From positions 19,648-83,647 of the forward strand of contig CAZKCA010000002.1 of NCBI GenBank assembly GCA_964551495.1: DNA of 64,000 nt, written 5' to 3'. This stretch comes from an uncultured Candidatus Saccharibacteria bacterium. GTDB taxonomy: Bacteria > Patescibacteriota > Minisyncoccia > Phycocordibacterales > DATDWN01. A program made the position numbers and the translations under genes. This document shows, in pieces, positions 3,265-57,238 of this stretch; within the stretch, counting starts at the first letter, position 1, and the number at the start of each line of letters is the position of its first letter. The notes beneath the pieces are model-generated. The model was not told the DNA's origin. It saw only the letters and a program-made list of their open reading frames with translations, and ran no database searches.

Positions 3265-4491
3265 ATGGATAAATTAATTTCTAATAAAAAGCATTTAACA
3301 GTTGGACTCCTTATTATATTAGGAGTGTTTTTTTCTGGATTTTTTATAGGTAAAGCCAATCAGTCTGATAAAAGTAAAATACTAAATGTAACAAACAAGG
3401 ATCCGGAAGGTAATGTTTCTGTTGATTTTTCTCCATTTTGGAAAGCTTGGAATACTATAAATGAAAAATATATACCTACTTCTACTACAACTTCTGAAAT
3501 AGATGATCAAAAAAGACTTTATGGTGCTATAGCTGGTATGACAAAAGCATTGGGTGACCCGTATACTGTATTTTTCCCACCAGTTGAGTCAAAAAGTTTT
3601 GAAGAAGAAATAAGTGGAAACTTTGAAGGGGTTGGAATGGAAATTGGTATAAGAGATGGTGTTTTGACTGTTGTAGCGCCACTTAAAAACACTCCAGCCT
3701 ATAGAGCAGGTATCCTTTCTGGTGATAAAATAATACAAATCAACAACGTTTCCACAAATGATCTAAGTACAGAAGAAGCTGTCTCTATGATAAGAGGTAA
3801 AAGAGGAACAGAGGTTGAATTTACAATGCTAAGAGACGGAGAGGAAGAACCTATTAAAATAAAAGTTATAAGAGATGTTATAGATATTCCTACTATAGAT
3901 ACAGAAATAAAAGGTGATGTTTTTATAATCAGACTTTATAATTTTTCAGCTATTTCACAAAATCTTTTCAGGCAAGCACTACGAGAATTCGTAGAGTCTG
4001 GAAGGTATAAGTTGGTATTGGATTTGAGGGGAAATCCTGGTGGATATTTGGAGGCATCTATAGATATGGCTAGCTGGTTTTTACCACCAGGAAAAGTAGT
4101 GGTTAAAGAAGATTTTAAAGATATATCAAAAAACCAGTCTTTTAGAAGTAAAGGGTATAATATTTTTAATGATTCTTTGAAGATGGTCATTTTGATAGAT
4201 GGTGGTTCTGCTTCAGCTTCTGAAATATTAGCAGGTGCTTTAAATGAACATGGTGTAGCAAAACTTATAGGAACCAAATCTTTTGGAAAAGGATCTGTTC
4301 AAGAGTTGGTAAAAATAACAGACGATACTTCACTAAAAATTACAGTGGCTAGATGGCTTACTCCAAATGGTCATTCTATATCAGATGGAGGATTAACTCC
4401 TGATATAGAAGTTGCTCTAGATATCGAGGCTTTTAAAGAAGGGAAAGATAATCAATTGGAAAAAGCCTTAGAATACTTAAAAGAGTTCTAG
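3265..4491 (+). CDS. S41 family carboxyl-terminal processing peptidase with PDZ domain
   Basis: 408 aa with an N-terminal TM anchor, a PDZ-like GDKIIQINNVSTNDLSTEEAVSMIRG and the S41 core GGSASASEILAGAL. Confidence 0.9.
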   Translation: MDKLISNKKHLTVGLLIILGVFFSGFFIGKANQSDKSKILNVTNKDPEGNVSVDFSPFWKAWNTINEKYIPTSTTTSEIDDQKRLYGAIAGMTKALGDPYTVFFPPVESKSFEEEISGNFEGVGMEIGIRDGVLTVVAPLKNTPAYRAGILSGDKIIQINNVSTNDLSTEEAVSMIRGKRGTEVEFTMLRDGEEEPIKIKVIRDVIDIPTIDTEIKGDVFIIRLYNFSAISQNLFRQALREFVESGRYKLVLDLRGNPGGYLEASIDMASWFLPPGKVVVKEDFKDISKNQSFRSKGYNIFNDSLKMVILIDGGSASASEILAGALNEHGVAKLIGTKSFGKGSVQELVKITDDTSLKITVARWLTPNGHSISDGGLTPDIEVALDIEAFKEGKDNQLEKALEYLKEF

Positions 4492-40766: not shown

Positions 40767-40896
40767 TTAAATGAAATCTCGTTGAGGCACTGTATTTTTG
40801 GAGACTTCGCAAGCGCGACGGCGCGAGACCGAGCAAAATTTCAGCAGAAATTTATGCGTGCTCCAAAAATACAGTGCCGAGAAAGAGATTTCATTT
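40767..40896 (+). repeat. nested-hairpin palindromic element, family 1, copy A
   Basis: 13-bp outer stem (TAAATGAAATCTC/GAGATTTCATTTA), internal loop, 18-bp perfect middle stem (GGCACTGTATTTTTGGAG) and a 57-nt core ACTTCGCAAGCGCGACGGCGCGAGACCGAGCAAAATTTCAGCAGAAATTTATGCGTG. Confidence 0.85.
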
Positions 40897-42849: not shown

Positions 42850-42980
42850 AATCAATAAATCCTTGCCTTGCCATACCTTTTGTGGAGCACGCATAAATTT
42901 CTGCTGAAATTTTGCTCGGTCTCGTGCCGTCGCACTTGCGAAGTCTCCACAAAAGGTACGACTTCGACGTGATTTATTGA
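42850..42980 (-). repeat. nested-hairpin palindromic element, family 1, copy B (inverted relative to the other copies)
   Basis: The reverse complement carries the same core with a compensatory pair change (GCGC..GCGC becomes GTGC..GCAC). It has unique outer (ATCAATAAATC) and middle stems. It lies 21 nt upstream of the dnaK ATG. Confidence 0.85.
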
Positions 42981-43024: not shown

Positions 43025-43161
43025 AATTCAAAACATTCGCAGGTTTTTGGCTGAAATAAAAGCGAGAAGCGCCAGCCGGAGACACTGTCTGAGCGTAGCG
43101 AGTTTGGCGAGAGGCCAGCTTTGAGTGCTTTATTTCACAAAAACCGAGGACGTTTTGAATT
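43025..43161 (+). repeat. nested-hairpin palindromic element, family 2, copy 1
   Basis: Outer stem AATTCAAAAC/GTTTTGAATT. Conserved unpaired ATTCGCAGG and CCGAGGAC. Inner stem TTTTTG..TGAAATAAA(A)GC / GCTTTATTTCACAAAAA. GC-rich centre. Confidence 0.7.
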
Positions 43162-43885: not shown

Positions 43886-44488
43886 CTATTTCTTAAACTC
43901 CCCTACTTTTACCTTTGGAGGACGAATTATTTTATCATTTAGTTTGTAACCAAGACTTAAGACTTCCACTACCTTATGGTCGTCTTCTTTTTTATCTACT
44001 TCTACATTTTCTATGGCTTCGTCTCTATTTGGATCAAAAATCTCTCCTATTGGATTTATTTGAGATACTCCATGATTTACTAAAACATTTAAAAGTTGTG
44101 AGTGAATATACTCTACTCCCACACGCCAGTTTTTATCTACTTTTTCCCAAGCTTCTTTATTTTTAAAGGCAGACTCAAAAGAGTCTAATACTGGAATAAG
44201 TTCATTTACAATATCTTCTTTAGCAAATTTTATAAAATTATCTCGTTCTGAAGCGTCTTGTTTTCTAGCATTTATAAAGTCAGCTTTGTCTCTTTGCCAA
44301 TTGTTCAAAAGGTCAGCTTTTTCTTTTTCAAGCTCTTTTATGCGCTTTTTAAGCTTTGCCAGTTTTGCATTTGCATCAACAGAAGTAACTTCTGTGTTTT
44401 CTTCAAACACAACATCATCAGAGTCAATTTCTGTTTCTTCTATCTCATCTTGAGATATCTCTTCTTCTTTTTTTAGATCGTCGTTCAT
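43886..44488 (-). CDS. grpE: nucleotide exchange factor GrpE
   Basis: Acidic N-terminus, coiled coil and C-terminal pattern VLDSFE...VGVEYIHSQLLNVL...GYKLNDKIIRPPKVKV. The ORF-track start at 44527 is TTG, so I prefer ATG 44488 (MNDDLKK). Confidence 0.9.
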   Translation of the reverse strand: MNDDLKKEEEISQDEIEETEIDSDDVVFEENTEVTSVDANAKLAKLKKRIKELEKEKADLLNNWQRDKADFINARKQDASERDNFIKFAKEDIVNELIPVLDSFESAFKNKEAWEKVDKNWRVGVEYIHSQLLNVLVNHGVSQINPIGEIFDPNRDEAIENVEVDKKEDDHKVVEVLSLGYKLNDKIIRPPKVKVGEFKK

Positions 44489-44527
44489 AGAAAGAATACT
44501 ACCAAAAGTTACTAAATTTTCAAACAA

Positions 44528-44649
44528 TTAAATCTTATTGAGGTATGGTATTTTTGGAGACTTCGCAAGCGCGACGGCGCGAGACCGAGCAAAATTTCAG
44601 CAGAAATTTATGCGTGCTCCAAAAATACTATACTGAAAAAGAGATTTAA
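44528..44649 (+). repeat. nested-hairpin palindromic element, family 1, copy C
   Basis: The core is identical to copy A. The stems are different but complementary (TTAAATCT/AGATTTAA and GGTATGGTATTTTTGGAG/CTCCAAAAATACTATACT, the latter with two G:T pairs). Confidence 0.85.
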
Positions 44650-44665
44650 TGATAAATATAAACCA

Positions 44666-44687
44666 AAAATCTCCCGAAGGAGATTTT
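44666..44687 (-). terminator. rho-independent terminator, probably the ancestral rpsI terminator
   Basis: AAAATCTCC-cgaa-GGAGATTTT, 4 nt downstream of the relic rpsI stop. Confidence 0.7.
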
Positions 44688-44691
44688 TTAA

Positions 44692-44718
44692 TTAACGTTT
44701 TGACCACTGTGGAGCCTT
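44692..44718 (-). pseudogene. relic duplicate of the rpsI 3' end (KAPQWSKR + stop)
   Basis: The minus strand reads AAG GCT CCA CAG TGG TCA AAA CGT TAA. The live gene end is AAG GCT CCA CAG TGG AGT AAG AGA TAG (44836..44810). The first 15 nt are identical and the remaining codons, including the stop, differ only by synonymous changes. Confidence 0.55.
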
Positions 44719-44809
44719 ATTGCCGAAGCACTGAAGCAAAGCTTAGTACTCGACTGCGGAAGACTAACGTAATTTGAAATAATTACAGACTACCGAATAG
44801 ACAGTAAAA

Positions 44810-45208
44810 CTATCTCTTACTCCACTGTGGAGCCTTTCTTGCCTTCTTTAGACCGAATTTTCTTCTCTCTTTCATTCTTCCATCTCTCTTTAGAAAACCT
44901 TCTCCTTTTAGAGTTTTTCTAAAATCTGCATTAAATTTAACGATGGCTCTTGCTATACCGTGTCTTAGTGCCTCTGATTGTGAGTGAATACCCCCACCTA
45001 CTATTTTGGCTGTTATTTTAAATCTTTCATCTACTTTTGTAAGAGGCATTTTAGAGATAAGTTCCATCTCACTTGTAGGAAAATAGTCTTTTATATCTTT
45101 ATCATTTACTGAAATGGTTGTTTTTGAAGAAGGAGAAATTCTAACTCTGGCAACAGATGTCTTTCTTCTTCCAACGGCTCCTGTATATTTTGTATTTTTA
45201 TCTTCCAT
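44810..45208 (-). CDS. rpsI: 30S ribosomal protein S9
   Basis: GGGIHSQSEALRHGIARA...RDGRMKERRKFGLKKARKAPQWSKR. Confidence 0.95.
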   Translation of the reverse strand: MEDKNTKYTGAVGRRKTSVARVRISPSSKTTISVNDKDIKDYFPTSEMELISKMPLTKVDERFKITAKIVGGGIHSQSEALRHGIARAIVKFNADFRKTLKGEGFLKRDGRMKERRKFGLKKARKAPQWSKR

Positions 45209-53369: not shown

Positions 53370-53491
53370 AAACAAACTCGTTGAGTTGATATGATTTTGG
53401 AGACTTCGCAGTCGGGTAGACGAGACCGAGCGATTTTTCAGCAGAAAAATACGCGTGCTCCAAAATTATATCAATGAAAAAGAGTTTGTTT
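53370..53491 (+). repeat. nested-hairpin palindromic element, family 1, copy D
   Basis: Outer stem AAACAAACTC/GAGTTTGTTT, loop GTTGAG, middle stem TTGATATGATTTTGGAG/CTCCAAAATTATATCAA (one G:T). The core is diverged, with the hairpin ATTTTTC-AGCA-GAAAAAT. Confidence 0.8.
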
Positions 53492-56029: not shown

Positions 56030-57238
56030 TTAAATTATAGTTTCCATTATTCCTCCTCCGAGACATTTTTCTCCTTGGTAGAATACAGCGGACTGACCTT
56101 TTGCTACTCCATTTTGGGGTTTTTCAAAAGAGATTTTATAACCTAATTCTAACTTTTCTACCTTACAATTTTGTTTTTCTTGTCTGTATCTTATCCTAAC
56201 CTGACAATTTAAAGGAAATTCTGGCTCTACCCCATCTATAAAATGAATATCTTTTATAAAAATCTCTTTTGTATTGAAAACTAAATCTAGCTGATTTTCT
56301 TTGTCTGCTACAGTTATAGTATTTTTTTCTAGGTCTTTTGACACAACAAAAAAACTTGGGTCATTTGGAGTCTTTTTGGTAATAGTAAATCCATGTCTTT
56401 GACCTATGGTATAAAACAGTGCCCCATCGTGAATCCCAACAACCTCTCCTTTGGAATTTAAAACATCTCCTTTTTTAGTTTCAATGAAGTGTTCAAGAAA
56501 ATCTTTCATATCTACTTTTCCAATAAAACAAAGTCCTTGGCTATCTTTTTTTGTGGCCGTAGGAAGACTAAACTTCTCTGCCAGTTTTCTAACTTCTGGT
56601 TTTGTTAAGTGTCCTACAGGGAAAAGTGTTTTTGAAAGCTGTTCTTGGTTTAAAGTGTAAAGAAAATAACTTTGATCTTTATTTTTATCATTTGATTCAT
56701 GAAGTTCAAACCTATAGTTTGATAAATCTTGTTGAGACAAGAGGTTTCTGAAACATTGCGAGCGCGACGGCGCGAACACGAGGAATTTTTCAGCAGAAAA
56801 ATATCCGTTTTCAGAAACCTCTTGAGGAGAAAGAGATTTATCAAATACCAAATTCTGAGCATAGTGTCCTGTGGCTATAAAATCAGCCCCCATCTCTTTG
56901 GCTTTATCTAGAAAAACTCCAAATTTTACATACTTATTACAAAAAACATCTGGATTTGGAGTCCTACCGGCTTTGTATTCAGAAATCATATAGTCAACTA
57001 CTTCTTTTTTATATTCCTTCTCACAATCAATAGTTAAAAATGGGACATCCAAAATGGCACAAACTCTCATAGCACTTCTCCTTTCTTCTTTCCAGTCACA
57101 AGGTAAAAACTCTGGATGCCAAACTTTTAGAAAAACCCCCATGACGTCAAAACCGGCTTCTTTAAGCAAAGCCAAAGAGACAGAAGAGTCCACTCCGCCT
57201 GATAGACCAACAAAAACCTTTGGCTTTCTATTTTCCAT
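56030..57238 (-). CDS. mnmA: tRNA 2-thiouridine(34) synthase MnmA, carrying a ~37-40 codon in-frame insert derived from a palindromic element
   Basis: VGLSGGVDSSV PP-loop, ATGHYAQ, KDQSYFLY and GLCFIGK. There are 58 residues between ATGHYAQ and KDQSYFL, whereas my recollection of characterised MnmA proteins is ~20. A TATAAA lies 7 nt upstream of the ATG. Confidence 0.95.
   Translation of the reverse strand: MENRKPKVFVGLSGGVDSSVSLALLKEAGFDVMGVFLKVWHPEFLPCDWKEERRSAMRVCAILDVPFLTIDCEKEYKKEVVDYMISEYKAGRTPNPDVFCNKYVKFGVFLDKAKEMGADFIATGHYAQNLVFDKSLSPQEVSENGYFSAEKFLVFAPSRSQCFRNLLSQQDLSNYRFELHESNDKNKDQSYFLYTLNQEQLSKTLFPVGHLTKPEVRKLAEKFSLPTATKKDSQGLCFIGKVDMKDFLEHFIETKKGDVLNSKGEVVGIHDGALFYTIGQRHGFTITKKTPNDPSFFVVSKDLEKNTITVADKENQLDLVFNTKEIFIKDIHFIDGVEPEFPLNCQVRIRYRQEKQNCKVEKLELGYKISFEKPQNGVAKGQSAVFYQGEKCLGGGIMETII
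56720..56841 (+). repeat. nested-hairpin palindromic element, family 1, copy E, located inside the mnmA coding sequence
   Basis: Outer stem GATAAATCT/AGATTTATC, loop GTTGAG, middle stem CAAGAGGTTTCTGAAA/TTTCAGAAACCTCTTG. The core is CATTGCGAGCGCGACGGCGCGAACACGAGGAATTTTTCAGCAGAAAAATATCCG. Confidence 0.78.

Follow-up and report, generated by a model that had tools for sequence, protein, structure and literature searches.

A relic of the native rpsI gene end behind a foreign replacement end and a 91-nt insert: a recombination scar in a CPR bacterium

The stretch of DNA analysed here (64,000 nucleotides, called the window) derives from a tiny-genome bacterium of the CPR/Patescibacteria (Patescibacteria/Paceibacterota). 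Its minus strand carries rpsI, the gene for ribosomal protein S9, whose live copy terminates in AAG GCT CCA CAG TGG AGT AAG AGA TAG, encoding KAPQWSKR-TAG with the stop codon at 44812-44810. Beyond this stop lie 91 non-coding nucleotides and then a second copy of the gene end (the relic), which encodes the same eight residues and a stop as KAPQWSKR-TAA. Because the starts of the two gene-end copies are 118 nt apart, the relic is out of frame with live rpsI. The first 15 nt of the two ends are identical, after which only synonymous differences separate the Ser, Lys, Arg and stop codons. The relic's first 15 nt form the second copy of a direct repeat that, if one gap is allowed, reaches about 22 nt (GGCAAGAAAGGCTCCACAGTGG versus GGCAAT-AAGGCTCCACAGTGG). 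The coordinates of these features, together with those of comparable features in related loci, are collected in the table.

The relic is followed by a terminator-like hairpin, AAAAATCTCC-TTCG-GGAGATTTTT, the sole one on the minus strand between 44400 and 45300; within this interval the live rpsI stop was found to have no terminator of its own. Since the live stop lacks a terminator and the single one lies beyond the relic, rpsI transcription presumably continues across both insert and relic as far as the ancestral terminator, so that the insert would constitute a longer 3′ UTR. The sequence features described in the original prediction, which called attention to a duplicated KAPQWSKR-stop copy beside the terminator, were all confirmed on re-examination.

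The duplicated rpsI end is not due to chance. Among approximately 3,100 open-frame ends from the window and 95 related loci, duplication of a C-terminus and its stop within 1 kb downstream is nearly exclusive to rpsI. The remaining matches comprise a few weak ones of 5-6 of 10 and two exact cases (10/10), both of which lie in repeats, either dispersed or tandem. Two translational explanations were rejected from the sequence, namely stop-codon readthrough, which would meet an in-frame TAA 8 codons past the TAG, and translational bypass at the rpsI end.

Features at the rpsI 3′ end in the window, and inserts and second rpsI ends in related loci
Feature	Locus	Position	Strand	Basis or description
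rpsI (ribosomal protein S9), live gene, 132 aa	Window	44810..45208	-	ORF; Pfam Ribosomal_S9 on identical database protein
Replacement gene end AGT AAG AGA TAG (Ser-Lys-Arg-stop), arrived with insert	Window	44810..44821	-	Empty-site relatives have TCAAAACGTTAA instead; native in L054
Direct repeat copy 1 (AAGGCTCCACAGTGG), within live rpsI	Window	44822..44836	-	Repeat family D11
Probable recombination tract, 3′ two-thirds of rpsI	Window	44837..45130	-	Substitutions versus L002 cluster here
91-nt non-coding insert, type A	Window	44719..44809	-	Absent from L002-L006, L010, L096; 82-87% identity in L007, L008, L009, L012
Conserved hairpin of ~14 bp, GUCGAGUACUAAGC-UUU-GCUUCAGUGCUUCGGC, at insert 3′ edge adjoining relic	Window	44722..44754	-	Predicted in 4/4 type-A variants
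Relic of native rpsI end, AAG GCT CCA CAG TGG TCA AAA CGT TAA	Window	44692..44718	-	27/27 identical to live end of L002, L003, L004-L006
Ancestral rpsI intrinsic terminator, 2-3 nt past relic stop	Window	44665..44688	-	Same hairpin directly 3′ of live stop in empty-site relatives
Type B inserts	L026 (= L110), L073, L080, L102, L106, L141, partially L105			
Type B module	L026	4374-4566		
Type B module	L073	4362-4528		
Type B module	L080	4374-4544		
Type B module	L102	1366-1565		
Type B module	L106	3365-3590		
Type B module	L141	317-530		
Type C inserts	L082, L140, L095, perhaps L160			
146-nt unit	L084			20 intact relic codons, synonymous-only differences from live end
Insert of ~700 nt	L092	4400-5071		152-aa ORF without Pfam match, own TTGACA-17-TATAAT promoter, flanking terminators
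Insert of ~660 nt	L094	4406-5012		DUF7718 + DUF5647 gene pair, toxin-antitoxin-like arrangement
Second rpsI-end copies	L107 and L022			
Insert of 1,364 nt	L150	2219-3582		Fic-motif gene, then 63-nt rpsI relic
Tandem array	L078	4384-4800		Unit (gene end, terminator, inverted copy) recurs 272 nt downstream at 93% identity over 71 nt; 2-3 gene-end-like copies

Comparison with related genomes reveals which of the two 3′ ends is ancestral. The closest relatives, L002 and L003, share 99.3% coding identity with the window (97.7% at four-fold degenerate sites) and an identical L13 protein. Their rpsI gene ends in …CAGTGGTCAAAACGTTAA, and the same terminator follows directly, with no insert. The site is likewise empty in L004-L006, L096 and L010, where the relic sequence serves as the live end and has the same terminator next to it. 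Because these relatives end rpsI with exactly the relic sequence and the same terminator, the relic is the native gene end. A 118-nt unit made up of the foreign AGTAAGAGATAG end and the 91 nt is an insertion/deletion polymorphism within essentially one species. The unit is placed between the rpsI body and the native last nine codons, and it brings the foreign last three codons and stop. This agrees with the original prediction, which held that a DNA segment had been inserted into the 3′ end of rpsI with its own version of the C-terminus.

By the same comparison, the live and relic ends are alleles from different lineages, as the synonymous differences had earlier been taken to indicate. The relic's TCAAAACGTTAA is the native rpsI end in the window's clade, whereas AGTAAGAGATAG is native in another Paceibacteria genome (L054) and a near-identical AGTAAAAGATAA occurs in L011. 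A simple target-site duplication was already thought insufficient to produce such a pair, and it fails because beyond the repeat the two copies go on as gene ends that are synonymous but not identical. A local tandem duplication at the end of rpsI with later divergence would fit direct repeats lying 118 nt apart, but the intervening sequence is unlike both the native downstream region and the coding sequence upstream, and the two ends match alleles of different lineages. An assembly artefact is ruled out by an independent Logan assembly, L001 (SRR12977061), which has a structure identical to the window's, and by a diverged version of the filled structure in four further sequencing runs, so that the structure has been recovered independently five times. 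The empty-site comparison and the independent assemblies effectively refute duplication and artefact alike, and we regard either as extremely improbable.

The diverged version belongs to a second filled lineage, sister to that of the window (L007, L008/L009 and L012), which is 80.5% identical to the window at four-fold sites and whose insert shows 82% identity over its whole length and 87% over the 82 nt aligned by BLAST. Its relics are decaying and mutually different (AAGCTTCACAGTGGTCAAAAAGTTAA, AAGTTTCACATTGGTCAAAACGTTAA and CAGCTCCTCAGTGGTCAAAGCGTTAA); between L007 and L012, about 5 of 26-27 relic positions differ, versus about 3/93 in the insert. A larger element was considered at L013-L015, whose contigs break soon after rpsI, and was rejected; the sequence downstream in L014 is a rearranged native region matching window positions 43037-43152.

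The insert itself, designated type A, contains no ORF and no tRNA or tmRNA detectable by ARAGORN. Rfam 15 gave no gathering-score match in the window, and a search of 44300-45000 at E ≤ 10 yielded matches at chance level only (E > 2). BLAST of the insert against phages and plasmids returned no match. Further copies of the spacer, for which the original prediction proposed a search, were found neither in the 64-kb window nor in exact-pattern scans of the conserved insert core through genome, metagenome and viral collections, where diverged copies would escape and 0 matches were obtained. The hairpin of the insert has the sequence GTCGAGYACTAAGCTTTGCTTYAGTGCTTCG. Were the insert to circularise, the expected junction would be …CTTCGGCAAT-AAGGCTCCACAGTGG-AGTAAGAGATAG-TTTTACTG…, also given as …GCTTCGGCAAT-AAGGCTCCACAGTGG-AGTAAGAGATAG-TTTTACTG…. 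Like miniature inverted-repeat elements with target-site duplications, the insert is small, non-coding and flanked by a direct repeat. Unlike them, it has no terminal inverted repeats at its ends and is single-copy in the window, so that neither of the hallmarks of a MITE or IS (inverted repeats, multiple copies) is seen in the 64 kb.

A separate MITE-like repeat, about 81 nt long and bounded by terminal inverted repeats of 17 nt (GTATGGTATTTTTGGAG…CTCCAAAAATACTATAC), occurs in the window at 44548-44628, 40792-40872 and 42883-42949 (opposite orientation), with weaker copies at 53395-53465 and 56761-56799. One copy lies between the rpsI terminator and grpE, where it is present in L002, L004 and L007 as well and absent from L010 and L011. 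Several Logan contigs break inside this repeat.

Several related loci carry a structured module after rpsI that we term type B. Its order is live gene end, terminator hairpin, inverted copy of the gene's own end, conserved core, and gene-end-like copy (CCACATTGGTC…). RNAalifold predicts three helices with compensatory changes. In the first stem (10 bp), the A-P-Q-W codons of rpsI pair with the inverted copy, and three synonymous positions show compensatory changes; the second (9 bp) has four covarying pairs and the third (7 bp) has one. Between hosts, the identity of the element is 79-85%, compared with 66-67% for their rpsI DNA. Rfam searches of 13 related loci, type B loci among them, produced no match. 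A covariance model of the core, R1, was built from L026, L073, L080, L102, L106 and L141 and run on the window together with 171 of the 175 loci under study, the four omitted being duplicate contigs. Its matches are confined to type B loci and always fall just after rpsI, and the core is not dispersed. R1 has no match in the window at E ≤ 10, where the only inverted segment is a vestigial 7-nt complement (TTACTGT) past the stop, and the window insert is outside the type B family. Whole modules are exchanged as alleles, because L106 (type B) and L107 (another type) have rpsI genes that are 97% identical and yet carry different modules.

Some further features of these loci were recorded. An extra segment of about 130-150 nt (…GACCTTCTTCTGATATTTTATGAG…ATATCGAAAAGGTGTACTGCTCCTGTAAGGAGG…) breaks up or takes the place of the type B core at L105:3450-3575 and in L108 at ~640-760. 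A conserved block, ACGAAAAAACCGCC…GGCGAT…AATCGCC…GGCGG, follows the modules in L106 (~3605-3659), L141 (~515-580), L105, L108, L022, L020 and L102; it has no Rfam match at E ≤ 0.1 and could be either another structured RNA or a regulatory region that has been conserved. In several independent modules the Gln codon in the second copy of the gene end is CAT (His), not CAG/CAA, in L026, L073, L102, L106, L141, L107, L022 and L008/L009, a change that weakens pairing with the inverted segment and breaks the direct repeat.

The type A insert might likewise act as a functional RNA module in the 3′ UTR, with its hairpin and gene-end mimic under selection, for example for mRNA stability or alternative pairing. 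The window's 91 nt fold better than shuffled sequences (z = -3.3 alone and -4.8 with flanks), and the hairpin half is more conserved than neutral sites, being identical to L007 at 43/47 positions. In type B, moreover, compensatory changes accompany the pairing of the rpsI coding end with a segment past the terminator, and covariation is seen in two further stems. The covariance-model search, however, places type A outside type B, the advantage over shuffled sequences is weak in the other type-A variants (z = -1.6 to -2.4), and there is no Rfam match. Conservation of the insert's 5′ half (31/43) is below the neutral level, and the relics of the L007 group decay quickly. The insert is also dispensable, since insert-less strains are otherwise nearly identical. 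We regard such a functional module, which would parallel type B, as quite improbable. With an overall identity of 82% versus 80.5% at four-fold degenerate sites between the window and the L007 lineage, the insert evolves at about the neutral rate, except for the conserved 14-bp hairpin.

The coding sequence adjacent to the insert carries differences that bear on how the filled allele reached this strain. Of 18 differences from L002 in the 2.7 kb up to the rpsI end, 9 fall in the 2,392 nt upstream and 9 in the last 299 nt of rpsI; this clustering in the last ~300 nt is significant (Fisher p = 4.5e-5). From the relic onward there are 0 differences in 124 nt. At the nine differing rpsI sites the window alleles are mixed, some equalling those of L007/L012 and some those of L004, with two being unique. 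The upstream part of the relic, GGCAAT-AAGG, has a 1-nt deletion common to the L007 group (GACAAG-AAG), so the relic's first bases (GGCAAT-) are old, and beginning with AAGGCTCC the relic matches the native live end at every position.

The clustering of substitutions relative to L002 in the 3′ part of rpsI is the signature of a homologous-recombination tract, and an unsampled close relative was the probable partner in an exchange of the filled or empty allele. Either the window would have gained the insert in this exchange or its sister strain L002 would have lost it. One crossover would lie several hundred nucleotides inside rpsI and the other at the relic or the terminator, and the position of the latter would account for a relic that is pristine from AAGGCTCC onward. 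This donor-tract test bears on the latest exchange, not on the original formation of the insert.

To place the window in a wider context, 160 further Paceibacteria-type rpsI loci from species-representative genomes and metagenomes were surveyed, giving 175 loci in all. A second rpsI end past the live stop is present in about 1/10 of the 160, with inserts that are mostly unrelated and range from 48 to 1364 nt, and with relic lengths near 15, 32 and 61-68 nt. A Fic-motif gene (HPFEDGNGR, 353 aa) with a MITE-like leader stands right after rpsI in L150, L059 (4388-5676), L154, L158 and L050; among these, only L150 has the 63-nt rpsI relic. GC content upstream of rpsI versus after the relic changes from 0.56 to 0.38 in L084 and from 0.52 to 0.33 in L150. 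Such jumps could reflect very foreign DNA abutting the relic, or short metagenome contigs that are chimeric, with the join at the conserved end of rpsI. Profiles of third-position GC within the rpsI genes of L084, L094, L150 and L092 were too noisy to reveal foreign tracts.

We consider the insert to have originated, with somewhat better than even confidence, by homology-facilitated illegitimate recombination and to have spread by homologous recombination, a reading drawn from sequence comparison. Recombination of this kind has been documented in naturally transformable bacteria (PMC6382021). In the ancestor of the clade, and with less certainty than the later exchange, a recombination event would have been anchored in the highly conserved 3′ region of rpsI, which is a natural anchor because it is the last gene of a long conserved block of ribosomal-protein genes. 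On the left side there would have been a homologous crossover in conserved rpsI, and on the right an illegitimate joint at a GGCAA microhomology, approximately 34 nt before the recipient's stop codon, such that the recipient's last codons stayed behind as the relic. GGCAA, whose length is within the 3-10 bp expected of such a microhomology, occurs both at the edge of the insert and in the native sequence where the two join, although it could belong to a longer decayed repeat. The route would be transformation, with natural competence of the host assumed, and the same process would account for the many unrelated inserts at the rpsI end in related genomes.

Several observations favour this one-sided recombination. 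No recombinase, transposase-like repeat or second copy was found, the inserts are diverse in length (48-1364 nt) as are the relics (15-68 nt), and several inserts start with an apparent donor terminator. In L150, the rpsI end and Fic gene block are followed by the 63-nt relic, whereas in L059, L154 and L158 the same block runs into other genes with no clear relic; the latter arrangement is donor-like in layout, as expected for one-sided recombination. For type A, the corresponding donor arrangement (the 91 nt after a complete rpsI without a relic) was not found in exact-pattern genome, metagenome and viral scans. Against one-sided recombination, the relic starts in independent inserts cluster at about -15, -32 and -63 nt, more like defined sites than random joints, and some inserts have cargo of the mobile-cassette type (the Fic gene; the DUF7718/DUF5647 pair).

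These last features would be natural for a miniature or decayed site-specific integrative element, CIME-like in that attL and attR are kept and the recombinase is lost. Recombination of attP with attB at a gene 3′ end yields a replaced end and a direct repeat of 15-22 nt, and the empty site would equal attB in L002/L003, L004-L006, L010 and L096. The phenomenon is confined to rpsI, relic boundaries are clustered, some inserts have toxin-like cargo, and L078 contains a tandem array. There is also precedent in streptococci, where tyrosine-integrase IMEs occupy the 3′ ends of rpsI, rplL, rpmE and rpmG and CIMEs without a recombinase are found (PMC5090054, PMC5704250). The closest known system is IMESag-rpsI of Streptococcus agalactiae, a 9.5-kb element with a tyrosine integrase, a relaxase and demonstrated circular forms (PMC5090054, PMC5704250). 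The window locus resembles IMESag-rpsI and CIMEs in its target at the rpsI 3′ end, the incoming replacement gene end, the flanking direct repeat and the empty sites in relatives. It differs from IMESag-rpsI in that its insert is only 91 nt, neither its surroundings nor the related loci have a detectable recombinase, and a coding tract of homologous recombination adjoins it.

The searches speak against such an element. The original prediction had suspected the scar of an integrase-driven element, a suggestion that finds no support: crude motif screens for Tyr/Ser recombinases were negative for the insert, for the whole 64 kb of the window and for the 3.5 kb that follow rpsI in L001-L095. Larger elements bounded by rpsI-end repeats were also sought, and in 3-4 kb flanks at the 175 loci nothing longer than 1.4 kb separates two rpsI ends. 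Viral contigs yielded no rpsI-end fragment, with 0 matches to a degenerate rpsI-end pattern as candidate attP, and the insert has no phage or plasmid counterpart. In addition, site-specific integration would leave rpsI upstream of the core unaltered, yet this is where substitutions cluster. We therefore judge a decayed integrative element to be unlikely, though it is the strongest of the alternatives. Its specific form, in which attP bore the last rpsI codons, the core lay inside AAGGCTCCACAGTGG, and a tyrosine recombinase acted in trans or has since been lost, would be equally doubtful.

A further reading takes the last ~20 codons of rpsI in Paceibacteria-type CPR bacteria to be a shared docking site for recombinase-less cassettes, which would range from hairpin RNAs to Fic or toxin-antitoxin-like genes. 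Along with a replacement gene end of its own, each cassette would bring a mimic of the gene end, and it would spread by transformation and host recombination or via a hairpin that imitates the rpsI end. The 118-nt unit of the window would then be a minimal or decayed member. We hold this to be rather improbable, if less so than a functional RNA module.

The layout at the window's rpsI has counterparts elsewhere. An arrangement of this sort was reportedly described by Paquin, Laforest and Lang in 1994 for the mitochondrial atp6 gene of Allomyces macrogynus, where foreign DNA brought a replacement C-terminus and the native C-terminal piece is said to persist downstream as a pseudogene. The insert there reportedly encodes an endonuclease that is thought to drive the event. 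As in Allomyces macrogynus atp6, the window has a live gene with a foreign 3′ end, an insert and a displaced native 3′ end; unlike it, there is no endonuclease ORF at the window's rpsI. The events made experimentally in transformable bacteria (PMC6382021) share with the window a conserved-gene anchor, trapped foreign DNA next to it, a joint at a short microhomology (putatively GGCAA in the window) and the lack of a dedicated recombinase. The present case differs in that it is inferred from natural variation in uncultivated bacteria, with competence assumed and the type-A donor not found.

The locus is thus a known kind of recombination scar, one that recurs at the rpsI end across the group. 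The type B module, which was met in passing and whose RNA is predicted to pair with the end of the rpsI coding sequence, is the lead of greatest interest and merits separate study. The scar in the window leaves the function of S9 unchanged, and its value is that of a marker. It provides evidence, at the level of sequence, that strains of an uncultivated CPR bacterium have recently exchanged DNA by homologous recombination, and it points to the end of the long ribosomal-protein gene block as a recurrent entry point for foreign DNA in reduced genomes. For annotators, rpsI pseudo-ends are to be expected at the end of this gene in Paceibacteria-type genomes.
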